Below, in pieces: positions 6,987 through 30,233 of a stretch of 64,000 nucleotides of DNA (positions are counted from its first letter, which is position 1; every line of letters starts with the position of its first letter). Position numbers and translations under genes: made by a program. The stretch is from an uncultured Armatimonadia bacterium (GTDB lineage Bacteria; Armatimonadota; Zipacnadia; CAZGSV01). A model generated the notes under the pieces. That model worked only from the letters and a program-made list of their open reading frames with translations. It searched no databases and was not told the DNA's origin. The stretch covers positions 62-64,061 of the forward strand of contig CAZGSV010000007.1 in NCBI GenBank assembly GCA_964528605.1. The letters run 5' to 3'.

Positions 6987-8255
6987 CTAGAGCATCTCCA
7001 AGAACGCCTCGATCCGCGTTCTCAGTTGCCCGGTATCCTCCTGGGAATAGTCCGTCTCAATCTTCAGACTCGGAATGCCCTTTTGTTTCAGGGCTGATGC
7101 CACGCGAATGGCCTCCAGATTGTAGCCGTGGCAATACTGCAGCACGTATTGCACCGCACCGGCCACACGGTACTCCTCAGCCAGCCTGAGCACGCTCTCG
7201 ATGCGCTCGTCGTTCGGCGAGAAGCAGGCGCACTCGGTCTTGAGATACCGATCGGCGATGGCCCTGAGTTGCGCCTCCAGGTCTCCATCCGCCTCAGGCA
7301 CCAGGTTCTCAAAGTACCGCGTCCCGGTGCACGTCTCATCGCACACCACGAGCGCGCCGCTCGACTCAAGAAGGTGGTGCAGTTTCCAGTTCCCCGCCAC
7401 CGAAGGACAGCCGGTGATCATGATCCGCTTCGCGCCCTCGCGGCCCACGCTCAGGCCGCGCGCCACCCGCTCCTCCAGGTCCTGGTTCAGCCGCTCCAGG
7501 CTCACAGCGAAGCGCTCGGCATCGTCGGTGAAGGCCGCCTGCGTGACCACCAAAGTGTCCAGGCCGCTTAGTGGCGGCGCCGCCAGGTTGCGGAACGAGT
7601 GCAACCGCGCAAGCCCCCGTCGCCTGCGATTCAATAGCCTCACGGCCTCCGACAGGCTGTCGGCCTCCAGCCTCTTCCCGGTCAAGTCCTCGAGCCGCTC
7701 CTTGAAAGCAAGCACCTCCTCATACCAGAGCGCCGCGTCACGCGGCGACTTCTTCTGCGGCACCTCCATCACGTGGAAGTCGGCTCTCTCGGCCAAAACG
7801 TCCCACGTCTTCTTCTTCGCGTCGCACGTCGTCTCGCCTACGGACATGTCCTCGAGCGGCGCGTAAGGGCACGTCTTCGAAAACGCAAGCCCCAGCGTGG
7901 ATTTGACCAGCGGGCACATGTCCCGCGGAAAGACCCTCTCCGCGTAGGGGACGGAGAACGCCGTGCCCCCGCACAAGGCCAGCGGCAGCACCCCAAGCGC
8001 CACGGCTATCTCCTCGGGCACATACACGCAGAAGGTGCCGATGAACTTGCCCCCCGCCTCCTTGTGGGCGATTATCTCGCGCACCCGCCCGCTGTGCGCC
8101 CGATGGATGACCTCGTCAAAGTACCCCATCGCTCGCGGCCGGTTCTCCTGCCACAGGACCTGCTCGCGGAACTGGGCAGCCGTGTGTTCCGCCAGAGCCC
8201 TGTGACGCTCGACGTCCAGCCCCAGCCCCCGCCACATCTCCTCGTATTCGGTCAC
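6987..8255 (-). CDS. Double-cubane-cluster-containing anaerobic reductase (DCCP; 2-hydroxyacyl-CoA dehydratase HgdB/FldC superfamily)
   Basis: True start is GTG 8255 (RBS AAGGAGG, GTGA overlap with the activator gene), 422 aa. Six cluster-Cys contexts 'TFCVYVPEE', 'DMCPLVKS', 'GETTCDAKKK', 'DETCTG', 'ECACF', 'QYCHGY'. C-terminus 'QLRTRIEAFLEML'. Confidence 0.88.
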   Translation of the reverse strand: MTEYEEMWRGLGLDVERHRALAEHTAAQFREQVLWQENRPRAMGYFDEVIHRAHSGRVREIIAHKEAGGKFIGTFCVYVPEEIAVALGVLPLALCGGTAFSVPYAERVFPRDMCPLVKSTLGLAFSKTCPYAPLEDMSVGETTCDAKKKTWDVLAERADFHVMEVPQKKSPRDAALWYEEVLAFKERLEDLTGKRLEADSLSEAVRLLNRRRRGLARLHSFRNLAAPPLSGLDTLVVTQAAFTDDAERFAVSLERLNQDLEERVARGLSVGREGAKRIMITGCPSVAGNWKLHHLLESSGALVVCDETCTGTRYFENLVPEADGDLEAQLRAIADRYLKTECACFSPNDERIESVLRLAEEYRVAGAVQYVLQYCHGYNLEAIRVASALKQKGIPSLKIETDYSQEDTGQLRTRIEAFLEML

Positions 8256-9028
8256 GAGTCCCCCTCCTTGCCTCGCGCACTCTCGGCGGCAATCAACGCC
8301 GCCCCAATCGCGGGAACGATCTGCGGGTTCTCGGGCACGAACACAGGGATTCCGAGCCGCTCGCCCAGCAGACCAACGATGCATCCGTTCTTCGCTCCCC
8401 CGCCGACGAGGAGAATCTCGGCCCCAGGTTCGACTCTGGATATCAGGCTTTCCAGTCGCACGACTATCGCGTGATGCAGACCGAGAGCAATCCTTCTCCG
8501 ATCGCCGCCCGAGGTAACCAGGGAGACGACCTCCGACTCGGCGAACACCGTGCACATGCTGCTGATCGGAACCGCCGCGTCGGCAGCCAGCGCCTCGCGC
8601 CAGAACTGCTCAATCTCCCAACCCAGCGCGCGCGCCATCAACTCCATGAACCGCCCGGTGCCGGCCGCGCAGCGATCGTTCATCTCAAAGTCATCGAAGT
8701 CCCCGTCCGGTGCCACGCGAATCGCCTTGCAGTCCTGGCCCCCGATGTCCACCACGGTCGTGCAGCCCGGCCGCACGAATGCCGCGCCCCGCGCGCACGC
8801 CTTGATCTCGCTCACCACGCCGTCGGCGAACTCCACTTTCAGCAGGTGTCGCCCGTAGCCGGTCGCGGTCACGGCCTCGAACTTCAGTCCCTCCATGGCC
8901 TGGCGCACCTTGCGCATCGGATCGTGGTCGGTGTCGAAGATGCGAAAACTCTCAACCCGCTCGCCGTCCAGCGTCACCATCTTGGTGGTGCGGGAGCCTA
9001 GATCAATCCCAAGCACGAGGCCGTTCAT
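8252..9028 (-). CDS. ASKHA-family ATP-dependent [4Fe-4S] activator/reductase (DCCP-R; HgdC/BadG-like)
   Basis: Motifs 'GIDLGSRTTK', 'ATGYGR', 'DIGGQDCK', 'MNDRCAAGTGRF', 'SMCTVFAESEV', 'GGGAKN'. ATG 9028 overlaps the PAP2 stop (TGATG); GTG 9031 is an alternative start. Confidence 0.9.
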   Translation of the reverse strand: MNGLVLGIDLGSRTTKMVTLDGERVESFRIFDTDHDPMRKVRQAMEGLKFEAVTATGYGRHLLKVEFADGVVSEIKACARGAAFVRPGCTTVVDIGGQDCKAIRVAPDGDFDDFEMNDRCAAGTGRFMELMARALGWEIEQFWREALAADAAVPISSMCTVFAESEVVSLVTSGGDRRRIALGLHHAIVVRLESLISRVEPGAEILLVGGGAKNGCIVGLLGERLGIPVFVPENPQIVPAIGAALIAAESARGKEGDS

Positions 9029-9549
9029 CACGGCCGCTTCCAGCGCGCCTCAAGCAGGAGGACCACCGCCCCGGCCAGCATTCCGGTCCCCAGGCCGCCG
9101 AGCACGTCGGTGGGCCAGTGCATGCCCAGGTAAGGGCGAGACACGCACGAGAGCAATCCGTAAAAGCCTGCCGCTATCGCCGCCCTCCGGCTCAGCCGCG
9201 CCAACACGGTCGTGGCCGCCGCCGCCGAACTCGCGTGTCCCGACGGGAAAGACCCGTTCTGCCACACGCGCCCGATGACGTTCAGATGCTCCAAGAGCAT
9301 ATAGGGTCGCGGCCTGAACCAGAGATCTTCGATGGCGCCATCGAACGCTACTGAAACTACTATCGCCGCCACCACCCAGAAGGCGATGCGACGCCCCTCC
9401 CGTCCCCCGACCAACACCAGCCCCACGCAGATCAGCCACCACACCAGGCTCCAATCGCCCGCAGTGCTCGAGGCGACCATCAGTGAGTCAATGCCCCGCC
9501 CCCACGAGCGGCTCAGCCACTGGACAATGTGGGCCTCCGTCCCGTACAC
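9028..9549 (-). CDS. PAP2-family membrane phosphatase
   Basis: Catalytic motifs 'RPRPY', 'SFPSGHA', 'SRPYLGMHWPTDVLGG'. GTG 9549 is preferred over TTG 9600 because of its upstream purine-rich RBS. Confidence 0.85.
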   Translation of the reverse strand: MYGTEAHIVQWLSRSWGRGIDSLMVASSTAGDWSLVWWLICVGLVLVGGREGRRIAFWVVAAIVVSVAFDGAIEDLWFRPRPYMLLEHLNVIGRVWQNGSFPSGHASSAAAATTVLARLSRRAAIAAGFYGLLSCVSRPYLGMHWPTDVLGGLGTGMLAGAVVLLLEARWKRP

Positions 9550-9717: not shown

Positions 9718-9969
9718 ATGACCAGAAAGAACAGGCTACGGCTCCTGCTGCTCATCGCCGCCGTCCTTCTCTCCGGCGCGCTCATAGCGTTCTCCACGCT
9801 CAAGGTCAGATACCCTGTTCAGGACACCGTCAAAACGGAGCCGGACATTACCCGCCTCAGCCTCACCCACAGTGTGGAGCGCGGCCCCGACGGCCGTCTG
9901 ACGATGCCTGCGGGAGCGCCCGCCGCTGGCGCCGGCGGGGCCGCCCAGCCGTGCCCTACCTGACTCTAG
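9718..9969 (+). CDS. Small membrane-anchored candidate selenoprotein ending C-P-T-U-L (CxxU)
   Basis: MTRKNRLRLLLLIAAVLLSGALIAFSTL...AAQPCPT, then TGA(9961-9963) CTC TAG(9967-9969). A 9-bp hairpin has its loop 23 nt after the TGA. If TGA is a stop the protein is 81 aa ending CPT. Confidence 0.55.
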
Positions 9970-9976
9970 GGCGAAC

Positions 9977-10762
9977 ATGATTATGGGTTCCATAATCAAG
10001 GCAAAACGAACGATCAGGGCGCGGGTGGTAACTCAGTGGGCAGCGTTGGGCCTCTTCAACTTGCACTTCCTCTCTCTGCGTTCGGTGTGCGCCCCCGTCC
10101 TCAACTGTCATTCCTGCCCTCTCGCCGTCTTCGCCTGCCCCGTCGGCGTCCTGGTCAACTTCTCCGTGCTGCGCCTGGTCCCGTTCATCACGCTAGGCGT
10201 GCTCGGCTTAGCCGGCGCGCTCGGCGGCCGCTTCGTCTGCGGCTGGCTCTGCCCCTTCGGCCTCCTTCAGGACTGGGCCAAGAAGATCAGAAGCAGGAAC
10301 GCCAGCCTGTCCCGCCGCTTCGTTTATCTGAAGTACGCCCTCCTTGCCGGCCTCGTCTTCGCCGTGCCGTTCTTCCTTCCTAAGTCAACCTACGCCTTCT
10401 GCAATCTGTGCCCGGCCGGAACCCTCGAGTCCGCCATACCCTGGGCCGTCATGGGCCTTTCGTCTCCGTGGCGCTGGAGTTTCGGCCTCAGGGCGGCCCT
10501 CCTCCTCGGCACGGTTGTCCTTGCCATCGCCGTCAGCAGGGGATTCTGTCGGACCCTCTGTCCCCTCGGCGCCATACTGGGCGTCTTCAACAAAGTCTCC
10601 TTGCTCAGGCTCAGGCTGACCAAGGAGGACTGCAACCACTGCGGCGCCTGCGCGCGCCGATGCCCTGTGGGCATTGACCCCGCCCGCCAGATCAACCACC
10701 CCGAGTGCATCCGCTGCCTTGAGTGCACCAGAACCGGCCACTTGCAGTTAGGGCCTAGATAG
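9977..10762 (+). CDS. Membrane 4Fe-4S binding protein (NapH/MauN/RdxA-like polyferredoxin)
   Basis: Motifs 'NCHSCPLAVFACPVG', 'CGWLCPFG', 'CNLCPAG', 'FCRTLCPLG', 'CNHCGACARRCP', 'ECIRCLEC', with TM segments between them. Confidence 0.88.
   Translation: MIMGSIIKAKRTIRARVVTQWAALGLFNLHFLSLRSVCAPVLNCHSCPLAVFACPVGVLVNFSVLRLVPFITLGVLGLAGALGGRFVCGWLCPFGLLQDWAKKIRSRNASLSRRFVYLKYALLAGLVFAVPFFLPKSTYAFCNLCPAGTLESAIPWAVMGLSSPWRWSFGLRAALLLGTVVLAIAVSRGFCRTLCPLGAILGVFNKVSLLRLRLTKEDCNHCGACARRCPVGIDPARQINHPECIRCLECTRTGHLQLGPR
9978..9998 (+). promoter_or_regulatory. SECIS-like hairpin 1
   Basis: TGATTATGG-GTT-CCATAATCA, a perfect 9-bp AU-rich stem with a G-first loop, inside the known 16-37 nt UGA-to-loop window. 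Confidence 0.55.
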
Positions 10763-10800: not shown

Positions 10801-11616
10801 ATGTTGATCGTGACCATACTGGCCGCTATGCTCGCGGGGGTGTTGGGCCTGGGGTGGCTTGTCCCTTTGATCATGGGCATCGTCTACCTCAGGAGGAGGA
10901 CGGGCGGAACGGTCCTCACTGTTCTGGGAGGAGTCTGGCTCCTCGGAGTCGTCGCCATTGTCGCGCTCGGGGCCCTGAGTGCCCGCGAGTGGCACCGTAG
11001 TTACGACTACTCGCCGAAGATCGAGCAATTCGACGCAGCGAAGTACACTGGACCGACAGGGACTATCGCCCTGACCTACAAGGGCCGTTCGAGACTTGAG
11101 GTCTACCAGCACGAGCAGCGCAAGCGGTTGCGCCTCTCAACGGACGACGGCACGATCAAGGCGCCCGTCGGTATCTACTCCGTCCTGAGTTACGAGGCCA
11201 TCGCCAAGGACGCCAAGAGAGCCCAATGGGTCGCCACGTACCGCCCCGATTCTCTCAAAGCCGCCGTCAGCGCCGGCGCCACGACCAAACTCGACCTCGG
11301 CCCGCCACTCACCGCCTCAATCACCGTCAAGAAGGCGCCCAACGACAGCGTAACCATGGACTTCAGCCTTACCGGAGCCACCGCCGGGCAGTACACAATC
11401 ACCAAGGCCCACGGTGTCCAGGTAGCCCCCTCTTTCGTGGCCCTCGACCAGTCGGGCCGCACCGTCTGGCGCGGCCGGTTCGAGTATGGCTGAGGGGGCA
11501 CCTGTGGGTATTCCGGGCGAATACCAAAGGAAGTCAAGGGAAAGGTCACCATCCGTCCGGTCGTCGAGGCGGGGCCCTTTTCCATCAAGGCCAAAGACAC
11601 GATCTGGTCAAGGTGA
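10801..11616 (+). CDS. Membrane-anchored candidate selenoprotein (U231 in F-E-Y-G-U-G-G-T-C)
   Basis: RBS AGGAGG and two N-terminal TM helices. The in-frame TGA 11491-11493 is followed by 40 open codons (GGTCGYSGRIPKEVKGKVTIRPVVEAGPFSIKAKDTIWSR) to TGA-TAG at 11614-11619. A SECIS-like hairpin loop lies 20 nt after the TGA. Confidence 0.8.
11507..11525 (+). promoter_or_regulatory. SECIS-like hairpin 2
   Basis: GGTATTC-CGGGC-GAATACC, 7-bp perfect stem, G in the second loop position. Confidence 0.75.
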
Positions 11617-11677: not shown

Positions 11678-12616
11678 ATGACGCGCAGTAGGACACTGAA
11701 GGCTGCCGCTTTGGCGCTTGTCTTCCTAACGGGACTGGCGTGTGTCGCGTTCCTGGGCTCCTGCCGGCAACCACCGACCACCAGCCCTCCTCCGCGTACG
11801 GTCGTTACGCCACCTAGCACGTTTCCCCTCGCTCGGCCGGCCGCGGTCCGCGACGACGGCAAGCCGCGCTACGGCAAGATCGTTCTCAACCAGGACGCCT
11901 CGAAGGTCCTGCTGGTCTCCTTCGAGCGCTCGCCTGAGGCCCGCGCGGGCTACGACCTCATCCGCGCAGACACCAAGTTCACAGGCTCCCTCAAGAACGC
12001 CGAGCAGATACCAGGTACTCTCACCGCATCGGGTACTGTCTTCTCGGCCCGCTTCCCCATTATCAACCTGCAGGTGCCCTTCAACCAGAAGGGCAGCGGC
12101 ATCCCGAACCCTTCGTCCGTTCAGTTCAGGTACTACGGCTCCGGCTCGGACCCGCGGGTCAACGTATCCGTCAGAACTCGCCTCCGCGAGGGCGCTACCT
12201 ACTGGGACTACTCCTTCCGGGGCATGCTCAAACCCTCGGCTAGCCCGCAGACCGCTCCCGTGCTCGACCTGAGCCGTGCGGCCAAACCAAACATCGAGAT
12301 CACGACCCAGCCGGACCCCGCGAAGAAAGGGTACACAGGCATCGGCCTCCAGTTGGGCGTCGCGGACATGGAGGTGGATTTCTGGAAAGGAACGATGCCC
12401 TCCACCGCACCGTCCGCCACCATCGTGTTCACCGCTGAAGGCGGTCGCGTCGCGCACCGCAGTACCGCCTCACTCGACAAGTTTACCTTTGGCTGAAGCG
12501 GCTCATGTGGGTATTCCGTGCGAATACCAAAGGGCAAATACACCCTTACCGCCAGCGTGGACACGGGCCCGCTGGCCGGAGTGGTCAAGGGCACCAAGGC
12601 TGTTGTCCTCAACTAA
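11678..12616 (+). CDS. Lipoprotein candidate selenoprotein (U273 in F-T-F-G-U-S-G-S-C)
   Basis: Signal peptide with lipobox 'LGSC' and a Pro/Thr linker. The in-frame TGA 12494-12496 is followed by 39 open codons (SGSCGYSVRIPKGKYTLTASVDTGPLAGVVKGTKAVVLN) to TAA 12614-12616. A SECIS-like hairpin loop lies 20 nt after the TGA. Confidence 0.8.
12510..12528 (+). promoter_or_regulatory. SECIS-like hairpin 3
   Basis: GGTATTC-CGTGC-GAATACC, the same stem and spacing as hairpin 2 with one loop substitution. Confidence 0.75.
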
Positions 12617-12736
12617 TCCCTAACTTCGCGGTCTCCGCTCGCCGGCCTTGGGCGGCGCCTCGCCACAGCCCAACCTGCTGCGCCCTGACCACCTCCGTTT
12701 GGGCCAGACCTTGGCTTGTCGCGTGGGAGGCAGCGT

Positions 12737-14158
12737 TTGGATAGCGAGATCCTGCGGCAGCTGCCCTCCGTTGACCAACTCCTGAACGCCGCCGAACGCG
12801 CCGGCCTCATCGGCGAGCACGGCCGTGAGATGGTGCTCAATGCGGCGCGCGCCGTGCTCGACCAGGCCCGGGCCCAGATCGCGCACGGCTCAGCCGCGCT
12901 GCCCGATTCCCGGGAGCATGCTACCGACCTTATCGTCGGCCAGATCGCGGGCTATCTGCAAGAAGCGGCCAGTCGCTCCCTCGGTCGTGCCGTGAACGCA
13001 ACCGGCATCATCATCCACACCGGCCTAGGCCGAGCCCTGTTGCCCCGCACCGCCGCCGAGGCCGTAGCCGAGGTCCTGGGTGGCTACTGCAACCTCGCGG
13101 TTGACCCGGACACGGGCCAGCGCGGACACCGAGACTCGCACCTCGTCGGCCTCCTCTGTGAACTCACCGGCGCCGAGGCCGCCACCATGGTCAACAACAA
13201 CGCCGCCGCCACCATGATCATCCTCAACACGCTGGCCAAGGGGAAAGAGGTCATCGTCTCCCGTGGCCAACTGGTCGAGATCGGCGGCTCCTTCCGCATG
13301 CCGGAGGTCATGGAGGCCAGTGGCGCCATCCTCCGGGAAGTGGGCACTACCAACAAGACCTACCTGAGCGACTACCTCAACGCTATCGGCGACAACACCG
13401 GAGCCATCCTGCGCGTCCACCAGAGCAACTACCGCATCATCGGTTTCACCGAACAGCCGGCCCTCGAAGGCCTCGTGCGCGTCGGCCACGAGCACAACCT
13501 GCCCGTCATTGACGACCTCGGCAGCGGCGCGCTCCTCGACATGAAGGACTTCGGCCTGGCGCACGAGCCCATGGTGCAAGAGAGCATTCGCGCGGGCGCG
13601 GACGTCGTCTGCTTCAGCGGCGACAAACTTATCGGCGGCCCACAGGCCGGCGTCATCGTTGGCCAGGCCGCTGTCATCGAGAAGATCAAGAAGAACCCGC
13701 TGGCCCGCGCCCTGCGAGTCGGCAAGATGACCATAAGCGCCCTGGAAGCGACGCTGCGCCTGTTCCTCAGCCGCGACAGACTCCTCAGCGAGAATCCGAC
13801 CTATCGCATGTTGTCCCTCCCCCTCTCCGAACTCGACGAGCGGGCCAAGTCCGTCGCCGAGGCGCTGCGCGAAGTCCTCTCAGGCGTCGCCGAAATCGCC
13901 GTCATTGACGGCGCCTCCGAGGTCGGCAGCGGCTCCGTGCCCGCGGAGGCGATTCCCACGCGCCTCCTGAGCGTCAGGCCCACAGCGGTGTCCACTCAGA
14001 CCCTGGCCCGATCACTCCGCCACTACGCCCCCCCCATTTTCGCCCGCGTCCACAAGGACGCGGTGCTCTTCGACTTCCGCACCCTGCAAGCCGAGGAAGA
14101 TGCGATCGTCTGTGCCGCGCTGCGGGCGCTCCTGGCAAATGAGGCGACGTCCGAATGA
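12737..14158 (+). CDS. selA: L-seryl-tRNA(Sec) selenium transferase
   Basis: Motifs 'VNATGIIIHTGLGRA', 'VNNNAAA', 'SRGQLVEIGGSFRMPEVM', PLP-Lys 'FSGDKLIGGPQAG'. TTG 12737 has RBS GGGAGG; TTG 12716 is an alternative. Confidence 0.97.
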   Translation: MDSEILRQLPSVDQLLNAAERAGLIGEHGREMVLNAARAVLDQARAQIAHGSAALPDSREHATDLIVGQIAGYLQEAASRSLGRAVNATGIIIHTGLGRALLPRTAAEAVAEVLGGYCNLAVDPDTGQRGHRDSHLVGLLCELTGAEAATMVNNNAAATMIILNTLAKGKEVIVSRGQLVEIGGSFRMPEVMEASGAILREVGTTNKTYLSDYLNAIGDNTGAILRVHQSNYRIIGFTEQPALEGLVRVGHEHNLPVIDDLGSGALLDMKDFGLAHEPMVQESIRAGADVVCFSGDKLIGGPQAGVIVGQAAVIEKIKKNPLARALRVGKMTISALEATLRLFLSRDRLLSENPTYRMLSLPLSELDERAKSVAEALREVLSGVAEIAVIDGASEVGSGSVPAEAIPTRLLSVRPTAVSTQTLARSLRHYAPPIFARVHKDAVLFDFRTLQAEEDAIVCAALRALLANEATSE

Positions 14159-15741
14159 TAGACCCGGAGAAGAGACGGCGCGTGATGGAGCGGTCCATGA
14201 AGTTGGGCCACTGCATCTGCAACCCCAAGCAGGCCTGCCCGTGTGACCTTTTCAAGGAGCAAGACGTCTGCACCTGCGCCGGCGAGCGCCCTCACCATCT
14301 CTCCTCCGAGGTCCGACTCACCACCCTGGTCGAGAACCCCGGCTGCGCCTCGAAGATCAGCCAGCAGGACCTGAAGCAGATCCTCGTAGGCCTCCCGCAC
14401 GAGACCGACCCGAACGTCCTCGTGAGCGCAAGCACCTGCGACGACGCCGGCATATACCAACTGGACGAGGACCGTGCGCTCGTCCAATCCGTGGACGTCT
14501 TCGCGCCCAGCGTGGACGACCCCTATACCTTCGGCCAGATAGCCGCCGCCAACTCGCTCAGCGACATCTACGCCATGGGCGGCCGGCCCCAAACGGCCCT
14601 CGCCATCATCGGCTTCCCCACCGACAGTCTGAGCGCCGACATCATGACCGAGATCGTCCGCGGCGGCATTGACAAGATGCGCGAGGCCGGCGTCCCCGTC
14701 ATTGGCGGCCACAGCATCAACGACCGCGAGATCAAGTTTGGCTTCGCCGTCACCGGCGTCATCAACCCCTCCACAATCGTCACCAATGCCAATGCCCAGC
14801 CCGGCGACCTCCTGCTGCTAACCAAGCCCCTGGGTGTCGGCGCCATCGCCTTCGCCGCGCAACTGGGGAAGGCGTCGTCGCTCGCGCTCACGGCTTCGGC
14901 CCGCGCCATGAGCCAACTCAACAATACGGCCGCCGAAGTGATGCTCGAAATCGGTGTCAACTCCGCCACCGACGTCACCGGCTTCGGCCTCCTCGGCCAC
15001 CTCACCGAGATGGCCGTCCAGAGCGGCGTCACAGTCGAGGTCTACCCGGAACAGATCCCGACGTTCCCGGAAGCCCTCGATTACCTCTCCCAGGGCATCA
15101 TCTCTGGGGCGGCCGAGCGCAACAAAGAGTACGTCTCGCGCTACGTCACCTTCGCCCCGGGCGTGAGCGAAGCCATGCAGTATCTGCTCTGCGATCCTCA
15201 AACCTCGGGCGGCCTGCTCATGGCCGTCCCGGCCGAGAAGGCCCAGGCGCTGCTCGCCGCGCTTCGCAATCGCGGCGTGGAGGCTGCCTCGATCATCGGC
15301 GCAGTGAGCGCCAAGTCGGAGGCACATATCGTGATCAAGAACAACCAACCTTGCTGTGCGGAAGAAGCCTCGGCTGAGGAGGCAGCGGCCGCGCCGGAGG
15401 AATCCCCCGCCGCTTGCTGTGCCTCCGTCGCTCACGCGGAGTGCTGCGCCACTCCCGACGAGGCTCCCCCAGAGACCGCCGATACTCCCGCCAAGGAGAG
15501 CTTCATGGCCTTCATGGGTGAGGTCATGCGCGAGGGGGGCATCAGCCTCCACAACAAGGAACTCATGGCCATCGCGCTCTCCCTGCTCGCCAAGTGCGAG
15601 CCCTGCGCCAGAATCCACCTGAGCAAGGCCCGCGCCGCCGGCGCCCGCGAGGACGAGATCACCGAGGCCGTCTGGATGGCCGTCGCCTTCGGCGGCGCGC
15701 CCACGCTGATGTTCTATGAATCGCTCAAGGGAAGCGATTGA
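14155..15741 (+). CDS. selD: Selenide, water dikinase (Cys-type) fused to an N-terminal Cys-rich FTR-like domain and a C-terminal AhpD/CMD domain
   Basis: Core 'GCASKI', 'DDAGIY', 'QSVDVF', 'FGQIAAANSLSDIYAMGG', 'GGHS', 'TDVTGFGLLGHL', 'DPQTSGGLL'. Extra N-terminal CIC/CPC/CTC motifs and C-terminal 'KELMAIALSLLAKCEPCARIH'. Confidence 0.95.
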   Translation: MIDPEKRRRVMERSMKLGHCICNPKQACPCDLFKEQDVCTCAGERPHHLSSEVRLTTLVENPGCASKISQQDLKQILVGLPHETDPNVLVSASTCDDAGIYQLDEDRALVQSVDVFAPSVDDPYTFGQIAAANSLSDIYAMGGRPQTALAIIGFPTDSLSADIMTEIVRGGIDKMREAGVPVIGGHSINDREIKFGFAVTGVINPSTIVTNANAQPGDLLLLTKPLGVGAIAFAAQLGKASSLALTASARAMSQLNNTAAEVMLEIGVNSATDVTGFGLLGHLTEMAVQSGVTVEVYPEQIPTFPEALDYLSQGIISGAAERNKEYVSRYVTFAPGVSEAMQYLLCDPQTSGGLLMAVPAEKAQALLAALRNRGVEAASIIGAVSAKSEAHIVIKNNQPCCAEEASAEEAAAAPEESPAACCASVAHAECCATPDEAPPETADTPAKESFMAFMGEVMREGGISLHNKELMAIALSLLAKCEPCARIHLSKARAAGAREDEITEAVWMAVAFGGAPTLMFYESLKGSD

Positions 15742-17707
15742 GAGCGCCGCCGCGGACGCCGAGCAGATAATCGTCGGCACCGCAGGCCACATTGACCACG
15801 GCAAGACCGCGCTCGTCAAGGCCCTAACCGGCGTAGACGCCGACACCCTAGCCGAGGAAAAGCGCCGCGGCATCACCATCGAACTCGGCTTCGTCTTCAT
15901 GGAGACGCCCGACCCGCGCAAGCACCTGGTCTTCATTGACGTCCCGGGCCACGAGCGCCTTATCAAGACCATGGTGGCCGGCGCCAGCAGCATTGATGCC
16001 GCTCTGCTCGTGGTCGCCGCAGACGAAGGCGTCAGCGCCCAGACCCGAGAGCATCTCGACATCCTGCGTTTGCTCGAAGTGCCGGCAGGCGTCGTGGCGC
16101 TCACCAAGGCGGACCTGGTTGACGACGAGCGTCTCGCCTTCGTCGCGCAAGAGACCCGTGACTCCCTCGCCGACACCTTCCTCAGCGACGCGCCGATCAT
16201 ACCCGTATCCTCGGTCACGGGCTGCGGCGTCGAGGACATCAGGTCTGCCGTGCTGGCGTTGGCAGACCGCGTGCGCCCGCGGCCCGACAGTGGCATCTTC
16301 CGCATGCCCGTTGACCGCGTCTTCACCATGCACGGCTTCGGCACCGTCATCGCCGGCACCATCCTCTCAGGCTCAGTCGCGGTCGCTGACACCATCGAGT
16401 TGTTCCCCGACGGGATGCTCGCCCATGTGCGCGGCATACAGGTCCACCGCCAGAACACGAAGCGCTCCAACATCGGCAAGCGCACCGCAATCAACCTTCA
16501 GGACATTGAGAAGGAGAGACTGCGGCGTGGCCAGTGCGCCGCGGCACCCGGCTCGCTCACGCCGACGAACCGCCTCGACGTCCGGCTTCGGCTGATGGAG
16601 CATTGCCGTCAAAGCCTGAAGAACCGCGCCAGGCTCCGCCTCCACCTGGGCACGGACGAGGTCATCTGCCGTCTGGCGCTTCTCGACCGCGAAGACTTGG
16701 CGCCCGGTGCCGAAGCGCCGGTGCAACTCGTGCTCGAAAGCCCGACCGTGGCCGTCCGCAGCGAGCGTTTCCTCGTCCGCACCTTCTCGCCGCAAGTGAC
16801 TATCGGTGGTGGCGCCGTGCTCGACCCATTGCCCCCGCGACACAAACGCTTCGACCCGGCAACGGTCGAGGACCTCGCCCGCCTCGACCGCGGCCTCGAA
16901 GAGGCAGTTGAGCAGGCCTTCCTCAAGTCGGGCTTCATCCCTCGGACGCCGCAGCAGGTCGCCCTCGCCCTTGCGGAGCGAGAGGAAGAGGTCACGCCAG
17001 CCGTGGAGGGCCTCTGCCAGGCGCGACGGCTCGTCAAGATCGCCGCAAGTGGCGAGCCAAGTCCGCCCTCGGCCTCACCGCAACAAACGTACCTGCACGC
17101 CGACGCCTTCGCGTCGCTCGGTCAGCGCCTGCTCACCCTCATCGAAGAGTACTACGCGCGGCACCCGTATCGGCTCTTGATGCCGCTCGCGGACCTCCAG
17201 TCGCGCTTCCTCAGATGGGCCGAGCGGCCCCTGTTGGACGCGGCGCTCGCCGACCTGCGCAAAGCCGGGCGCATCTACTCCCAGGAAGGCGCCGTCGGCC
17301 TGAGCGGCTACGAGATACCGCTCAAGCCCTCCGAACGCCAGTTGGCCGAACGCATCGAGGCGGCCTTCAGCGGGGCCGGCCTTGCCGCGCCCCTGGAGGA
17401 GGAAGTGCGCCAGCACCTGGGCGCGCGCCCCGAGACCTTCCAGAGCATCCTCACAGGTTTGATTGACCAAGGGCGCTTGGTTAGACTCAGCGACAAGGTG
17501 ACCTATCACCGAGAGCATCTGGACGCGGCGCGCGCCATGGTGACCGACCACCTCAAGACCCATCAGCGCCTCTCCGTCGCCGAACTACGCGACCAACTCG
17601 GCGTCTCGCGCAAGTACGCCCTCGCGCTCATGGAGTACTTCGACAAGGTCGGCCTCACCCGGCGCGAAGGCGACGCCCACGTCCTCAAGCAGCCAGCGGG
17701 AAGGTGA
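15716..17707 (+). CDS. selB: Selenocysteine-specific translation elongation factor
   Basis: 'GTAGHIDHGKT', 'EEKRRGITIELGF', 'DVPGHE', 'TKAD', C-terminal winged helix 'RDQLGVSRKYALALMEYFD...TRREGD'. Confidence 0.97.
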   Translation: MNRSREAIESAAADAEQIIVGTAGHIDHGKTALVKALTGVDADTLAEEKRRGITIELGFVFMETPDPRKHLVFIDVPGHERLIKTMVAGASSIDAALLVVAADEGVSAQTREHLDILRLLEVPAGVVALTKADLVDDERLAFVAQETRDSLADTFLSDAPIIPVSSVTGCGVEDIRSAVLALADRVRPRPDSGIFRMPVDRVFTMHGFGTVIAGTILSGSVAVADTIELFPDGMLAHVRGIQVHRQNTKRSNIGKRTAINLQDIEKERLRRGQCAAAPGSLTPTNRLDVRLRLMEHCRQSLKNRARLRLHLGTDEVICRLALLDREDLAPGAEAPVQLVLESPTVAVRSERFLVRTFSPQVTIGGGAVLDPLPPRHKRFDPATVEDLARLDRGLEEAVEQAFLKSGFIPRTPQQVALALAEREEEVTPAVEGLCQARRLVKIAASGEPSPPSASPQQTYLHADAFASLGQRLLTLIEEYYARHPYRLLMPLADLQSRFLRWAERPLLDAALADLRKAGRIYSQEGAVGLSGYEIPLKPSERQLAERIEAAFSGAGLAAPLEEEVRQHLGARPETFQSILTGLIDQGRLVRLSDKVTYHREHLDAARAMVTDHLKTHQRLSVAELRDQLGVSRKYALALMEYFDKVGLTRREGDAHVLKQPAGR

Positions 17708-17794
17708 AGGTTCCGGTGAACCTTCTGGACTTCAAACCCAGTATGGGGCTTGGATAAAGTCCCGGGTGGGTTCGACTCCCACACCTTCCCGCCA
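17698..17794 (+). tRNA. selC: tRNA-Sec (anticodon TCA)
   Basis: 8-bp acceptor GGGAAGGT/ACCTTCCC, 6-bp D stem AGGTTC-CGGT-GAACCT, loop CTTCAAA with TCA at 17732-17734, long variable arm GGGGCTT/AAGTCCC, T arm GTGGG-TTCGACT-CCCAC, encoded GCCA end. Confidence 0.97.
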
Positions 17795-17829: not shown

Positions 17830-19881
17830 ATGCCTTCGAATGACAGACTACCGCGAGTTTGGGTGCGGCCGGTTGAGCCGGAGGAGTATCCCGGCTTCGA
17901 GGAGCGCCGCCTCAAACCCGTCACCCGCGCCGACCTCGACCAGCAGTTCCACACCGTCGCCCTTCGCGGCTTCAGTTACGACCGCTCGCCCGCCGAGCCT
18001 CCCCACAAGTTCCGCGTCGTCAACCTCAAAGAGACCCTCGATCTCTACACCGTGGAGTACGACTTCGGCCGCGTGGTCTGGCCGATGTGGCCCTTCCTCT
18101 TCGCGGAGAACTGGCGCGAGGTCATCGATGAGTTGTTCGCGCGCCGACTCTACCTCTTCGACATCTGGGCCTACTGCCCCTCTGGCGTCTTCGAGCGCTT
18201 CGAGTGGTCCGAATACCGCGTGCCCGACGAGGTCCACCAGTACATCCTCCGGAAGCTGGGCCCGCGCTTCCTCGGCTACGACAACGGCGAGCAAGACGGG
18301 CGCTACATCGGCGGCTACGCTAAGTCAGTCTGCCCCGCGCCCGCGACTCGCCCGCAGGGGTTCGAGGCCTTCTGCCAGTACTTCCGCCAACTGGGCGACG
18401 ACCTCCAGAATCATCTGACGGCGCTCAACTCCCTCACCTTCTCCCACTACTTCGCCCACCTCGGCAACCACCGCCTGCTCGGCGCCGAGTGCGCCCAAGC
18501 CCTCCCCAGCGTCCCCATGTGGTACGCCTTCATCAGAGGCGCGGGCAGGCAATACGGCATCCTCTGGTTCGGCAACGCCAGTGTGTGGAACCGCTGGGGC
18601 GCTAAGTCGCTGGCCGATCCCAGCGCCGAGGACACCAACGCCCCCGGCTTCTTCTCCGGCCCCACCGCCGGCACCAGCCTCAGTCTCCTGCGCCGCCTCT
18701 GGTACGTGCTGACCATGTACGGCAGCGTCATCATGGGCTACGAAGCGGGGCAACTCGCCAGCGGCACGGTCGAGCGCACCGTCAACGGCCTCACCAAGCA
18801 GGTCCCGGACCTCACCGACATCGGCCGCGAGCATATGAGGGGCGCTCAATGGTGCGCCGATCATCCGGATCGCGGCGTGCAGCACACCCCTGTAGCCCTG
18901 CTCTGGGACTTCTACGCCGGCTGGGCGCCGCCGCGCCACCTCTACACCGGCGACACCTACCTCGTGTGGGGCAACATGCCCTACCAGAAGGGCGACCACC
19001 AGATTGACCTCCTGCTGCGCGAACTCTACCCCGACTACCCCGACGCCGGCTTCTTCCACAACGAGCGCGGCTTCCTCACCGCCACCCCCTGCGGCGACTC
19101 CTTCGATGTCATCCTCTCCAACGCGCCGCGCGAGGTCCTCGACCGCTACGCGTGCATCGTCGCGTTGGGCGAGACCGCTATCGAAGGCGAACTCCTCGAG
19201 AAGCTGTCCTGGTGCCTGCAAAGAGGCGCCCACGTGGTCGCGTGCGCAAACCAACTCTCGCCCGAGGCCGCTGCCCTCTTCGGCGTCACAGTAGGCGACC
19301 AAGGGGAAGCCTACCACGCCGTTATTGCCGACCATCCCTGGCCCATCAACGAGCCCCGCTTCACCTTCCACAGGCTGACCTGTCAGCCCGACGCCGAAGT
19401 GCTCGCCCACACGCGTCAAGGCTCGCCCCTGGTTGTGCGCCGCCAGCACCAAGCCGGCGGCTTCACGCTCCTCTTTGCTGCCGACTTCTTCCTCAGCGAG
19501 CGCCTGCTCTCGCCTGACAAGATCGCGAATGAGGTTGACGAACCGCTGGCCTCTCCCTTCGCGACGCTCGAGCATGCCAAAGCCATCCTCCTTCCCTACC
19601 TGCGCTCCTTCAACCTCGTTACTGTGGACGGCCCCCCCGTGCAGCTCCTCGTCAACGTCAGCTCGCGGACCGACCGACTCCTGGTCACCTTGTGCAACAA
19701 CAGCCCTCAACCCTGGGAGGGTACCGTCCGCCCGAAACGCGCCGGCCTCACCTCCGCGCGCAACTGGATGACGGGCGAGGAAATCCCCGGTAAGGAGTCC
19801 ATCCGCGTGCTCGTTCCGCCCCTCGATGTCGCAGTCGTGGAACTCCTGCTCGACGCCCCGGCATTCGAGGCCCGGCCATGA
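17830..19881 (+). CDS. Hypothetical protein, possibly glycoside-hydrolase-like (TIM barrel + class-I GATase-like C-terminal domain)
   Basis: 683-aa ORF with coding-like codon bias. 'YDNGEQD' and 'LGAECAQ' resemble clan-A acid/base and nucleophile contexts. 'PVALLWD...' C-terminal part is GH42-like. Confidence 0.5.
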   Translation: MPSNDRLPRVWVRPVEPEEYPGFEERRLKPVTRADLDQQFHTVALRGFSYDRSPAEPPHKFRVVNLKETLDLYTVEYDFGRVVWPMWPFLFAENWREVIDELFARRLYLFDIWAYCPSGVFERFEWSEYRVPDEVHQYILRKLGPRFLGYDNGEQDGRYIGGYAKSVCPAPATRPQGFEAFCQYFRQLGDDLQNHLTALNSLTFSHYFAHLGNHRLLGAECAQALPSVPMWYAFIRGAGRQYGILWFGNASVWNRWGAKSLADPSAEDTNAPGFFSGPTAGTSLSLLRRLWYVLTMYGSVIMGYEAGQLASGTVERTVNGLTKQVPDLTDIGREHMRGAQWCADHPDRGVQHTPVALLWDFYAGWAPPRHLYTGDTYLVWGNMPYQKGDHQIDLLLRELYPDYPDAGFFHNERGFLTATPCGDSFDVILSNAPREVLDRYACIVALGETAIEGELLEKLSWCLQRGAHVVACANQLSPEAAALFGVTVGDQGEAYHAVIADHPWPINEPRFTFHRLTCQPDAEVLAHTRQGSPLVVRRQHQAGGFTLLFAADFFLSERLLSPDKIANEVDEPLASPFATLEHAKAILLPYLRSFNLVTVDGPPVQLLVNVSSRTDRLLVTLCNNSPQPWEGTVRPKRAGLTSARNWMTGEEIPGKESIRVLVPPLDVAVVELLLDAPAFEARP

Positions 19882-20750
19882 GAATCAGCCGCCGACAGTT
19901 CATCTCCGCCGGAGGCGCGCTCTTGGGCGCCGCTGCTCTCGGCGTCAGGATCGGCGAGGCTCAGGAAGGAGACGACTCGATGTCACCCGCCATCAACCCC
20001 GAGTACCTCACTGGCTCCGCCGAAGATTGGCCGCTCAACGAACTGGCGAGCCTCGGTTACCGCGGCCTCGAAGTCTCTCCGCAGGCCATGGCCGACCTCG
20101 CGGCCTGGAAGCCCGCCGCCGATCGCGCACGCCTCCGCATCTTGTGCGTGAACGCGCTCCCCGAATTGCGCCCGTACCTGACAGGCAGCCTGTCGGACGC
20201 CGTCGAACGCCGCCGCCGCGACACGCTGCGCCGCCTGCTGGCGACGCTCGAACGTACCCGCCAGGAAGGGATTCCCTTTCTCGTCGTCGCCCCCAGCCGC
20301 CTGGCGGAGAACTACCAGACTCCTGACGAGGCGCGGGCACTCCTCGTGGCCGGCCTCCGAGAACTCGCCTCCGTCGGCGACACAACCATACTCCTCGAAG
20401 GCGCGCCGTTCCGCATGTTCTCCTCCTCTGAGGCGCTCGCCGGCATCGTGGACGAGGTCGCTTGCCCCAATGTGGCCGCGGCCCTCAACGTGGGCCATGC
20501 ACTCCTTAACGGGTCCAATCCTGCAGAGGCGGCCAAGGCGCTGGGCCCACGCCTCCGCTACCTCCAGGCGCACGACGCCGATCTGCGTCCTGGCGTCCCG
20601 CGCCTAGACCGCCACCTGCCGCTCGGCACTGGCATGGCGCAGAAAGAGGACGTGCGCAGCGCCCTGGGCGAACTGCCCTTCGCCGTGACCGTCACGGCTC
20701 CGGCCGATCCCCTCGCGGCCGCCCGCGACGCGCTCGAGTGGCTCTCCTAG
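19878..20750 (+). CDS. Sugar-phosphate isomerase/epimerase (xylose-isomerase-like TIM barrel) with Tat signal
   Basis: 'SRRQFISAGGALLGAAALG' twin-arginine leader; 'ILLEG', 'LNVGH', 'QAHDAD', 'HLPLGTG'. Confidence 0.75.
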   Translation: MRISRRQFISAGGALLGAAALGVRIGEAQEGDDSMSPAINPEYLTGSAEDWPLNELASLGYRGLEVSPQAMADLAAWKPAADRARLRILCVNALPELRPYLTGSLSDAVERRRRDTLRRLLATLERTRQEGIPFLVVAPSRLAENYQTPDEARALLVAGLRELASVGDTTILLEGAPFRMFSSSEALAGIVDEVACPNVAAALNVGHALLNGSNPAEAAKALGPRLRYLQAHDADLRPGVPRLDRHLPLGTGMAQKEDVRSALGELPFAVTVTAPADPLAAARDALEWLS

Positions 20751-20825
20751 CCCGCGCTGATTGCATTGCGCCGCGCAATCGTGTATCCCACTCCCGCGGC
20801 GCATCTCTTACCAGGAGGAACGCAA

Positions 20826-21833
20826 ATGCCAAGCAAGGTCAAACTGGGTTTCATTGGCTCCGGCGGCATCGTCCACGGCCACCTCGAACACGGCCTCAAG
20901 AACTTCCCTGACGTCGTCTTCGCGGGCTGGTGCGACCTCAATGCCCAAACGGCGGAAGCCCGTCGCCAGGAGGTCGGCGGCCACGGCAAGGTCTACACCG
21001 ATGCCGAGAAGATGCTCGACGAGGCCAAGCCTGACGCCGTGTATATCATGCTCCCTCCCTTCGCCCACGGCCCGGCCGAGGACCTGGTCCTCGCCCACAA
21101 ACTCCCGTTCTTCATTGAGAAGCCCGTCGCCATAGATATGAAGACCGCCACCAGAGTCGCCGAGGGCATCAAGAAGCACAAACTCATCACCTCGGTCGGC
21201 TACATGACGCGCTACCGCAATTCCGTCCAGCGCGTTAAGCAACTGCTCGCGAAGCAGACTCCCGTGCTCATGCACGGCGGCTGGATAGGCGGCGGGCCCT
21301 CCAACTACGAGGGCATCTGGGGTTGGTGGGTGCAAAAGGACAAGTCCGGAGGCCAGTTCCTGGAGCAGACCACCCACACCATTGACCTTGCCCGCTATCT
21401 CTACGGCGACGCCGTCAGCGTTTACGCCGTCGCTGTGAAGGGGCGCCGCAAGCGTCCCGACTTCTACACCATCGAGGACGCCTCCATGGTCCAACTCAAG
21501 TTCGCCAACGGCGCCGCGGCCAACCTCTACAGTTCCTGCAGCACCTCCGTGGGCGGCGGTGTCCTCCTTACCCTGTGGGCCACCGACATGAGGGCCGACT
21601 TCACCGGCTGGGAAGCCAGCGTCAAGATCCAACTCCCCGGCGGCGAAGAGATCGTCGTCCCCGGCGAACAGAACATCTTCGCGCGCGAAGACCGTGCCTT
21701 CATTGACTCCGTTAAGGCGGGCAAGAACAAGGGCATCCTCGCCACCTACGAGGAGGACGGCCTTAAGGCCACCGCCATCGCCTGCGCCGCGAACGAGTCC
21801 ATGGCAACCGGCAAGGTGATCCCTCTGGCCTAG
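20826..21833 (+). CDS. Gfo/Idh/MocA family oxidoreductase
   Basis: RBS AGGAGG before ATG 20826. 'LGFIGSGGI', 'LPPFAH', 'FIEKPVA', 'VGYMTRY', 'GGQFLEQTTHTID'. Confidence 0.9.
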   Translation: MPSKVKLGFIGSGGIVHGHLEHGLKNFPDVVFAGWCDLNAQTAEARRQEVGGHGKVYTDAEKMLDEAKPDAVYIMLPPFAHGPAEDLVLAHKLPFFIEKPVAIDMKTATRVAEGIKKHKLITSVGYMTRYRNSVQRVKQLLAKQTPVLMHGGWIGGGPSNYEGIWGWWVQKDKSGGQFLEQTTHTIDLARYLYGDAVSVYAVAVKGRRKRPDFYTIEDASMVQLKFANGAAANLYSSCSTSVGGGVLLTLWATDMRADFTGWEASVKIQLPGGEEIVVPGEQNIFAREDRAFIDSVKAGKNKGILATYEEDGLKATAIACAANESMATGKVIPLA

Positions 21834-21872
21834 TGCCACGCCCGCGTTCCCCAGCGTCCCCTGGTACATAAT

Positions 21873-21906
21873 CTTGCCCCGGATCGAAGCCTCGGCCCGG
21901 GGCAAG
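21873..21906. terminator. Hairpin between convergent genes, possible bidirectional terminator
   Basis: CTTGCCCCGG...CCGGGGCAAG 10-bp outer stem plus an inner stem, between stops at 21833 and 21946; no clear U-tract. Confidence 0.45.
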
Positions 21907-21945
21907 TCGTTCTCCCGACATTCTAGCCAGACGGCCTAAGCGCTG

Positions 21946-23661: not shown

Positions 23662-23793
23662 TCCGCGACGCTCCTTTCTCAGCGCCAGGCGGCGCCACGT
23701 GACAGCGCCAGGGGGCTAGTCTGCACGCTCCCTCGGACCGCCACTCCCCCGGCGTGTCCATCCTCTTTAGCACTTGCGCGGGGCCTCAGGCAA

Positions 23794-25287: not shown

Positions 25288-25442
25288 CTCGTATTCCTCC
25301 TTGAACCGCGGCACACTCTATCCGACACCCGCAGGTGCGGCAACTGAAGCCGGTGACGGCGGCTAGCGGAGACTTCGCCACGGCATGCGTGGTAGAGTAG
25401 CAGGCCGTTGGTGGTAGCCCCACTCCGAAGGAGGCCGGCCTC

Positions 25443-26828: not shown

Positions 26829-26889
26829 CCCGGCCTCACCTGTCCGGCGGAGACCAAGCCACCCGACTCGCCTAAGGACAGCGCGTCCC

Positions 26890-26915
26890 GTAGGGGCGGC
26901 CCCCCGTAGCCGCCC
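26890..26915 (+). repeat. GTAG-headed REP-like palindrome
   Basis: GTAG-GGGCGGC-CCCCCGTA-GCCGCCC between convergent genes. Confidence 0.55.
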
Positions 26916-26939
26916 GCGCCGCGAGCACCCGAGGCGCCG

Positions 26940-29432: not shown

Positions 29433-29666
29433 TCCTAGCCCCCCTGTCCAGTGAAGTGGGCGCTGATGACCACGCTTCCTGCGGCCATCGTCTCTCGGGC
29501 CGAAGTATGCACACGTGGACCGCGCATTGGCAACCTCACGCCGACCCGCTCTGCGTACCCTCCGGTTTGCGCCTGTGCCCGGTTAGTGTACCCTTGACAC
29601 CATGGTCGCGCTCGCGCCTGCTCCCAGCGGCCCGGCGACGAGAGTCCGGGCAAAGGAGGGCCTCGC

Positions 29667-30146: not shown

Positions 30147-30233
30147 GCCGCGGCGCGACCAACCTCAATATGCCCGTAGTCCGGGCACCTAGTCCTCTCT
30201 GCCAGCGTTACTAGCAGTAGAGGTCCATAAGCA

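Follow-up and report, generated by a model that had tools for sequence, protein, structure and literature searches.

Does the UGA codon that interrupts a putative exported-protein gene in an uncultured Armatimonadia bacterium end that protein, or is it read as selenocysteine (Sec), and what is the segment behind it that the gene appears to share with its upstream neighbor? The gene, here called gene 2, lies in contig CAZGSV010000007.1 of assembly GCA_964528605.1, of which we analyzed a stretch of 64,000 nucleotides (positions 62 to 64,061 of the forward strand), referred to below as the window. A sequence-only reading had proposed that gene 2 encodes a lipoprotein with an in-frame UGA and that its C-terminal Sec module recurs, on a different scaffold, in the preceding gene 1. 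Our results indicate that gene 2 very probably encodes a selenocysteine-containing exported protein. We further hold, with high confidence, that it represents a genuine selenoprotein of a new family found throughout the Planctomycetota-Verrucomicrobiota-Chlamydiota (PVC) bacteria, part of whose peptide is the footprint of a selenocysteine insertion sequence (SECIS).

The interrupted frame was confirmed in both coordinates and sequence. From ATG 11678, gene 2 encodes 272 residues ending in ...LDKFTFG, and after TGA 12494-12496 the frame continues through 39 open codons (SGSCGYSVRIPKGKYTLTASVDTGPLAGVVKGTKAVVLN) to TAA 12614-12616. The N-terminus (MTRSRTLKAAALALVFLTGLACVAFLGSC) contains a hydrophobic, signal-like stretch followed by L-G-S-C at residues 26-29; compared with the lipobox [LVI][ASTVI][GAS]C, residues 23-29 (VAFLGSC) place Gly at position -2. 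Lipoprotein processing of gene 2 stays plausible as proposed, but it is no trait of the family, since a lipobox-like motif is present in only about 12 of 99 homologues. Gene 1 has the same layout: from ATG 10801 it runs to RGRFEYG, TGA 11491-11493, then GGTCGYSGRIPKEVKGKVTIRPVVEAGPFSIKAKDTIWSR over 40 open codons and a stop TGA at 11614-11616. When the read-through products of the two genes were compared by BLASTP, the match was confined to the C-terminus, with 18 of 36 residues identical (E = 1e-08), so that both the predicted alignment of the two extensions and the predicted dissimilarity of the N-terminal parts were borne out. The 36 nt around the UGA plus the hairpin that follows are nearly identical in the two genes. 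The idea of a portable C-terminal Sec module, one domain on unrelated scaffolds, accordingly held for this gene pair.

The peptide G-U-x-G-x-C-x-Y-[ST]-x-R-[IV]-P, written as a degenerate DNA pattern, served as the probe for a scan of the species-representative genomes of GTDB. The scan returned at least 119 genomic stretches, nearly all from PVC metagenome-assembled genomes (MAGs). About 135 of the 139 matches listed end long open reading frames (ORFs; about 140-1238 codons for those contained whole in their contig), and the in-frame extensions in these matches are mostly 38-60 codons long; by our estimate, only a handful of pattern matches should arise by chance. Matches in L022 (Oscillospiraceae) and L099 (Bacteroidales) were rejected as chance, and those in L072, L095, and L103, where only 24-49 codons are open before the TGA, may be decayed or frameshifted copies or assembly errors. 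When the fetched loci (8-kb blocks) were translated in six frames and searched with a hidden Markov model (HMM) of the domain, 43 further copies with variant motifs came to light, and distinct U-containing copies number at least 174; the module is thus found well beyond the window, as the sequence-only reading had anticipated. The listed matches fall in Pirellulales, Planctomycetales, Phycisphaerae/Sedimentisphaerales, Verrucomicrobiota, and Lentisphaerae/Victivallales, with Armatimonadota (2), Anaerolineales (2), and Hydrogenedentota (1) as outliers, and on this sampling the family appears almost confined to Planctomycetota, Verrucomicrobiota, and Lentisphaerota. Copies are often multiple and arranged in tandem, as in L017 (four plus one non-Sec copy) and L056 (four on a 6-kb contig).

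Cataloging the N-terminal partners distinguished four architectures among the listed matches. Type A (57 matches) has an N-terminal part of about 500 aa, the motif ...MPFGU..., and a 49-aa tail. Type B (63 matches) has a pre-U part of about 130-715 aa, commonly 150-200 or 420-520, and a Sec region reading ...F-x-Y-G-U-G-G-x-C-R-Y-S-W-R-V-P-x-x-F-K-G-K. Type C (6 matches) resembles gene 1, with two transmembrane helices as an anchor, type D (7 matches) resembles gene 2, and 6 matches lie outside these types. With the Sec domain removed, BLAST detected no similarity between the N-terminal regions of type C and those of A, B, or D, while types D and A share an N-terminal domain with the signature P-x-Y-A-K...F-D-E-S-x-G-T-G-x-G-Y-D-x-x-Y-A-D-x-N-x-N-G-D-L-T-D-D. 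Signal peptides, lipobox-like motifs, or transmembrane anchors occur throughout the family. In three loci (L041, L108, and L126) the Sec domain is followed by a multi-pass membrane domain (about 290 aa, no Pfam match), and in L121 the module gene continues into a PDZ domain; L108 and L126 also adjoin genes for NapH-like proteins.

Public gene calls all stop at the TGA. With the 272 residues that precede the UGA of gene 2 as query, exhaustive HMMER searching retrieved 112 clusters at 50% identity, and most of these alignments finish exactly at the last residue of the database protein, indicating that the entries are truncated at the UGA. Word-indexed protein searches with the full read-through proteins returned 1 and 3 close matches only. 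A 53-sequence profile of the domain matched one truncated protein. These results are uninformative on distant or Cys-containing forms because the entries stop at the UGA.

Closely behind both Sec codons lies an RNA hairpin. The 19-nt sequence GGTATTCCGNGCGAATACC (GGTATTC-CGKGC-GAATACC) occurs exactly twice in the 64-kb window, each time 13 nt past one of these TGAs, against an average of 0.01 matches expected from shuffled sequence. Across at least 174 distinct family sequences, 96.7% of cells pair over the eight-pair stack, compared with 25-59% when the register is slid, and none of 1000 column shuffles reached the observed pairing. Given compensatory changes at five base pairs of the stem, we take it from this covariation that the conserved hairpin is a bacterial SECIS. 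It fits in position and form the description of bacterial SECIS elements as stem-loops immediately 3' of the UGA (PMC9312934). Its loop is UGG in 151 of the 174 copies and CGKGC in the lineage of the window. A search of Rfam at gathering thresholds returned only the tRNA-Sec, with no curated family matching the hairpin, and a search for the hairpin outside the family gave only reverse-strand copies of the palindrome and one match in L106, in an Arg-rich frame of low complexity, which we put down to chance.

Because the hairpin lies within the coding sequence, its pairing leaves a mark on the protein. The third base of the Gly/Arg codon is G in 137 of 141 sequences, that of the Val/Ile codon is A or G in 140 of 141, and the stem Arg codon is CGA in 123 of 141, whereas the high G+C content of the window would lead one to expect a different Arg codon. 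Stem changes are compensated even where the amino acids alter on both arms: the residue pairs encoded by the 5' and 3' arms include Tyr/Val (UAC/GUA), Tyr/Ile (UAU/AUA), Cys/Ala (UGC/GCG), Leu/Glu (CUC/GAG), His/Val (CAC/GUG), Ser/Arg (UCG/CGA), Thr/Arg (ACG/CGU), Leu/Gln (UUG/CAA), Ala/Arg (GCG/CGC), and Pro/Arg (CCG/CGG). Since these residues swap together while pairing holds, the peptide [GR]-Y-[ST]-x-R-[VI]-P is largely a translation of the SECIS stem. The invariants at the protein level are instead [FY]-G-U-G-G-x-C and the Pro that follows. The shared C-G-Y-S-x-R-I-P segment, on which the sequence-only reading had aligned the two genes, is indeed common to both, but the covarying residue pairs mark it largely as a footprint of the stem and not as the core of the module.

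This footprint raises the question of whether the likeness of genes 1 and 2 is itself a by-product of a common SECIS, with no protein domain shared. The near-identity of the two genes around the UGA and the free exchange of stem-peptide residues under maintained pairing would both be expected in that case. The likeness, however, extends well past the RNA element: a single HMM aligns about 70 aa before the U and about 28 aa past the hairpin in all types, and the conserved features include G-P-P at the first strand, P-x-x-x-I-x-D-x-x-G-x-x-V, and, past the hairpin, D-x-G-P-[FL]. The same strands are retained in non-Sec homologues, which are free of the hairpin constraint, and codons beyond the hairpin show selection at the protein level (see below). 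We therefore regard a purely RNA-derived likeness as very unlikely. The unit alignable by HMM comprises about 110 aa, roughly 70 before the U and 40-50 after it, so that the module is about twice the last ~55 residues to which it had initially been assigned, and Sec, in the motif [FY]-G-U-G-G-x-C, lies about two-thirds of the way through it.

The fold of the domain was approached through a relative that lacks Sec. An AlphaFold (AF2) model of the full-length non-Sec homologue P0079, built from an 85-sequence alignment, has a predicted local distance difference test score (pLDDT) of 91.4 and a predicted template modeling score (pTM) of 0.83; this model describes the relative and not the window proteins themselves. 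It consists of two tandem beta-sandwiches in which the Sec-equivalent position falls within a 14-residue inter-strand loop and the last two strands correspond to the segment encoded after the UGA. Foldseek comparison of the model with the PDB gave generic tandem Ig/FnIII matches only (template modeling score at most 0.27) and no functional lead. No Pfam or NCBIfam family scored above its cutoff for gene 1, gene 2, or the representatives searched (10 against Pfam, 4 against NCBIfam), and the sub-threshold matches were to Ig-like families only (FlgD_ig, MG2, and PKD_6).

We then considered whether TGA 12494 is an ordinary stop, so that gene 2 encodes a 272-aa protein and the conserved hairpin behind it is a regulatory element, a terminator, or a separate element. 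The public gene calls and the normal use of TGA as a stop in this genome speak for it. The comparative data point the other way. Metagenomes yielded close relatives (94-95% identical) as well as a more divergent lineage (L006-L012, about 55% identical), all sharing this gene order, and in every one of them, including the more distant lineage, both genes keep the TGA position, the extension length, and the stop position. Against the ~55% lineage, the extensions show nonsynonymous to synonymous rate ratios (dN/dS) of 0.20-0.36 and no frameshifts; the loss of coding constraint that would have spoken against read-through was not observed. Family-wide, codons beyond the hairpin differ at a proportion of synonymous sites (pS) of 0.63-0.70, which is saturated, and of nonsynonymous sites (pN) of 0.32 (dN/dS 0.21-0.31). 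In the first 12 codons after the UGA, which contain the hairpin, pS is 0.29-0.37 and pN 0.08-0.10 (dN/dS 0.19-0.28), a depression of synonymous change that is expected if RNA structure constrains silent sites. Moreover, termination at the TGA would leave 39-50 further open codons of conserved length and stop position to be explained, a separate downstream ORF would have no start codon, and, judged by the homologue-based model, the protein would be cut before the last two strands of its beta-sandwich. Both genes are also tightly linked to selA, selB, selD, and tRNA-Sec. An ordinary stop is accordingly highly improbable. That the UGA is instead read by a near-cognate or suppressor tRNA (Trp, Cys, or Arg) or has been reassigned, without Sec, is hardly credible: non-Sec homologue P0100 does have Arg at this position, possibly one base from TGA (CGA or AGA), but TGA is the commonest true stop in the window, where it ends 11 of the 20 genes checked, among them gene 1 at 11614, which led us to reject reassignment, while tRNA-Sec, SelA, SelB, and SelD are all encoded in the same operon, the covarying hairpin lies at the distance expected for SelB recruitment, and TGY (Cys) variants, one mutation away, were not found.

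Decoding as Sec is thus the reading we adopt. The complete Sec machinery (selA, selD, selB, and tRNA-Sec) directly follows gene 2, and UGA 12494 would be decoded by the SelB/tRNA-Sec system encoded there, directed by a hairpin of 7-8 bp within the coding sequence, which begins 13 nt past the UGA. Gene 2 displays all the features of a selenoprotein that can be examined from sequence, except for the customary Cys homologues, which selenoprotein families usually have but need not have.

Cys homologues were sought specifically. Among about 180 copies in the fetched loci, not one carries Cys in place of Sec, and the non-Sec full-length homologues read have Arg, Pro, or unrelated residues there instead. 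In P0100, Arg occupies the Sec position and Ala that of the +4 Cys at identical spacing, which looks like a recent loss, and a single Cys remains in this region of P0040. About 98% of U-containing copies retain the +4 Cys, while the four or so copies in the loci that lack U have lost it as well, consistent with a coupling of the two residues. A search of 241 million metagenome records with a Cys-codon (TGY) pattern gave 13 matches, all chance matches in frames full of stops, although this search relied on the SECIS-encoded downstream motif, which a Cys form could lose and which must be counted against an obligatory role for Sec. Cys forms were not detected, which is not to say that none exist, and with no Cys substitute found, Sec appears obligatory in this family. 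Published prediction methods state that nearly every selenoprotein has Cys homologues and that a family lacking them may be lost in filtering (PMC12013277), which could explain how the family went unnoticed. As a separate observation, locus L096 carries a hairpin remnant (CCTATTCCGTGCGAATACC, minus-strand position 2590) without a UGA, which looks like a recent loss of Sec.

The features of the window are collected in Table 1. The operon runs in the order small transmembrane protein, NapH-like protein, gene 1, gene 2, selA, selD, selB, and tRNA-Sec, with the double-cubane-cluster reductase and its activase divergent and upstream.

Table 1. Features of the selenocysteine operon and its upstream neighbors in the window.
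Feature	Position	Strand	Remarks
Gene 2	11678..12616	+	Putative exported two-domain beta-sandwich selenoprotein, 312 aa, Sec at codon 273
Gene 2 Sec codon (UGA)	12494..12496	+	Context F-T-F-G-U-S-G-S-C; TGA kept in homologues
Gene 2 SECIS hairpin (putative)	12510..12528	+	GGUAUUC-CGUGC-GAAUACC, 13 nt after UGA
Gene 1	10801..11616	+	Two predicted transmembrane helices, same Sec domain, Sec codon 11491-11493
Gene 1 SECIS hairpin (putative)	11507..11525	+	GGUAUUC-CGGGC-GAAUACC, 13 nt after UGA
Small single-transmembrane protein	9720..9969	+	Ends ...Q-P-C-P-T-UGA-L-stop; TGA 9961-9963, CTC, TAG 9967-9969
Candidate SECIS hairpin	9978..9998	+	UGAUUAUGG-GUU-CCAUAAUCA, 9 bp, 14 nt after UGA, overlaps NapH-like start codon
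NapH/MauN-family membrane polyferredoxin	9977..10762	+	Fer4_5, CX3CP motifs, 4Fe-4S motif
selA (selenocysteine synthase)	12716..14158	+	Adjoins module genes in at least 27 loci
selD fusion	14155..15741	+	Cys-rich N-terminus, C-terminal AhpD/CMD domain with CxxC
selB (Sec-specific elongation factor)	15716..17707	+	
tRNA-Sec, anticodon UCA	17698..17794	+	ARAGORN; Rfam RF01852, 75 bits
Double-cubane-cluster reductase	6990..8255	-	NCBIfam NF040772, 452.9 bits against a cutoff of 350
BcrAD/BadFG-type activase	8252..9031	-	Recurrent family neighbor

The small protein at the head of the operon is itself probably a selenoprotein, the third, with a C-terminal CxxU motif, which would bring the selenoproteins encoded beside the Sec machinery to two with a third probable. 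An ending of the form C-[PS]-T-U-(1-2 aa)-stop recurs in six lineages (the window, L006, L027, L097, L120, and L126), always just upstream of a NapH-like gene. Its hairpin is identical in L006, about 14-15 nt past the UGA, and analogous hairpins were read by eye in L027, L120, and L126, with RNAfold giving another fold for L027 and L120. NapH-like genes adjoin module genes in these lineages and in L108. From the positive-inside rule, we infer a periplasmic orientation both for the tail of the small protein and for the Sec domains encoded by genes 1 and 2.

The wider neighborhood was assessed by counting, among the matches listed, the loci that have a given gene inside the fetched 8-kb block. 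By this measure the most recurrent neighbors are selA (at least 27 loci), selB (at least 26), HGD-D-type (double-cubane) genes (at least 24), selD (at least 15), and BcrAD-type activase genes (at least 10); NapH-like genes occur in at least 5 loci besides the window and the L006 lineage. One operon in L104 (2066-7314) combines a module gene, an S-adenosylmethionine (SAM) methyltransferase with weak ArsM-like matches, three HGD-D genes, an activase, and a SelD-CMD fusion. The SelD of the window is likewise a fusion, of 528 aa, with a Cys-rich N-terminus (HCICNPKQACPC...CTC), a Cys-form core (GCASK), and an AhpD/CMD domain that contains CxxC. Alignments over almost its full length were obtained for at least nine other loci, and the L104 SelD has the same Pfam architecture. 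The C-terminus of SelD matches AhpD domains of arsenic/selenium-associated families. Gene content of this kind gives a hint that double-cubane reductases may be connected with the chemistry of selenium or metalloids. Further downstream, positions 17830-32249 carry sugar-metabolism genes typical of PVC heterotrophs (a xylose-isomerase-like TIM barrel, a GFO/IDH oxidoreductase, a fucose isomerase, a sulfatase, and an ADP-ribosylglycohydrolase) and, at 30234-32249, a thioredoxin-like/AhpC-NHL repeat protein, with no evident link to the Sec operon.

What the Sec domain does is a question on which we are more tentative. The reading we favor, to which we would give somewhat less than an even chance, is that the U...C pair on its Gly-rich loop forms an extracytoplasmic selenol/thiol (selenenylsulfide) redox or soft-ligand site, recharged through the NapH-like protein and the C-P-T-U protein. 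Electrons would pass from the NapH-like protein to the CxxU tail of the small protein and from this tail to the U-x-x-x-C loop of the Sec domain, which would cycle between the selenol/thiol and selenenylsulfide states while acting on an extracytoplasmic substrate. Several points weigh against it. It is drawn from genomic context and motif chemistry, with gene order as the link to the NapH-like protein, and a NapH-like neighbor is present in only about seven lineages, although the 8-kb blocks under-sample neighbors. Most type B members instead adjoin double-cubane reductases and an activase (plus a methyltransferase in L104, the one operon examined), a neighborhood that could signify metalloid chemistry and not a simple redox relay. 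All family members found, finally, come from MAGs or metagenomes.

The principal alternative is that the Sec/Cys loop is no catalytic redox center but a surface site for binding or handing over selenium or a soft metal(loid) (Se, As, Hg, or Cu), one that feeds or cooperates with the double-cubane reductases, the SAM methyltransferase, and the SelD-AhpD fusion. The presence of selA, selB, selD, HGD-D, and BcrAD genes within 8 kb of module genes, the composition of the L104 operon, and the arsenic- and selenium-related affinities of its methyltransferase and of the SelD C-terminus all agree with this alternative, and the absence of Cys forms fits a need for a selenolate ligand. In addition, the Haft preprint (10.1101/2022.07.06.499078) describes double-cubane proteins as enriched in genomes with the SAO selenoprotein system. 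On the other hand, no binding or transport component (ABC transporter or TonB receptor) was identified among the adjoining genes, and the CxxU small protein and the NapH-like polyferredoxin of the window are classical features of electron transfer. Co-location with sel genes may also mean only that the machinery chiefly serves this family, a relation that has been put forward for fdhA in Proteobacteria (PMC4807772). We consider such a hand-over role possible but on balance unlikely.

Comparison with known systems places the family among the SelB-dependent selenoproteins while setting it apart from each of the groups considered. Like Escherichia coli FdhF, its members have an in-frame UGA and an intragenic 3' stem-loop with G/U in the apical loop (PMC9312934), and selA, selB, selD, and selC are present and adjacent. 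Unlike FdhF, the family protein is predicted to be an exported Ig-like domain and not a molybdopterin enzyme, and its hairpin has a short 8-bp stem with a mostly UGG triloop (CGKGC in the window). It also differs from most selenoproteins in that Cys homologues were not found (PMC12013277). Thioredoxin-fold CxxU/UxxC selenoproteins, among them exported forms resembling thiol:disulfide oxidoreductases, similarly pair Sec with a nearby Cys, with a plausible extracytoplasmic location and a redox role as the default; membership of that group was rejected on the all-beta tandem sandwiches, the U-x-x-x-C spacing, and the lack of a Pfam/NCBIfam match.

Two further comparisons concern the chemistry of the loop. 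Animal thioredoxin reductase carries a Gly-Cys-Sec-Gly tail, with the two residues adjacent and at the extreme C-terminus of a cytosolic flavoenzyme. The family resembles it in having a selenol/thiol pair on a flexible, glycine-flanked, exposed segment that could shuttle electrons, but its residues are four apart, on a loop internal to an exported domain that has no cofactor; the C-P-T-U-L small protein is closer to the reductase tail than the Sec domain is. NapH/NosR/CcoG-type proteins pass electrons to extracytoplasmic partners, and CcoG has an Ig-like C-terminal domain. The likeness to these systems consists in the NapH/MauN-family gene that adjoins the module genes of the window; here, in contrast, the partners would be separate selenoproteins, and genes for nitrate, nitrous-oxide, or cytochrome-oxidase systems are not nearby.

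The SAO system of Clostridioides difficile and other anaerobes (10.1101/2022.07.06.499078) also includes exported or lipoprotein Cys/Sec parts, database entries truncated at the UGA, and an association with double-cubane proteins. The SAO protein families (MerB-like, ABC transporter parts, CU dipeptides) and their taxa differ, however, and no sequence relationship to the present family was detected. We compared the literature by keyword, covering a Planctomycetes genome paper, a 2026 review, BSepDB, the 2025 prediction method deep-Sep, and a 2022 preprint on eight unexpected selenoprotein families. In the latter four sources, Planctomycetes and Verrucomicrobia are unmentioned by keyword. No description of the family was found by full text and keyword in an incomplete library (PMC4807772, PMC13188914, PMC12013277, PMC13326102, 10.1101/2022.07.06.499078), a coverage that leaves room for a prior description.

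The family would be a large, phylum-spanning addition to the selenoproteins, unmatched in Pfam and NCBIfam, whose members on record are truncated hypothetical proteins and thus a case of systematic mis-annotation. It exposes a blind spot of prediction, in that current predictors require Cys homologues, which are apparently absent here. It also offers a natural case of RNA constraining protein, with amino-acid pairs covarying because the SECIS stem must pair, and its compact, well-defined SECIS could help in the engineering of Sec insertion. The apparent absence of Cys forms argues that Sec is chemically indispensable in this domain, which would be rare and informative on the question of why selenium is used. 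A more speculative proposal, which we put forward as rather improbable, is that the Sec-loop domain and the C-P-T-U protein are the principal clients of the Sec machinery in many PVC bacteria and the reason for keeping it, carrying out a hitherto unrecognized, selenium-obligate extracytoplasmic chemistry in which Cys cannot replace Sec. Such chemistry could take the form of a selenol electron relay or of chalcogen/metalloid hand-over, coupled to the NapH-like, double-cubane, and SelD-AhpD proteins. The co-location of the family with selABD, double-cubane, SelD-AhpD, and NapH-like genes and the CxxU mini-protein ties the Sec machinery to extracytoplasmic chemistry in these poorly studied bacteria.

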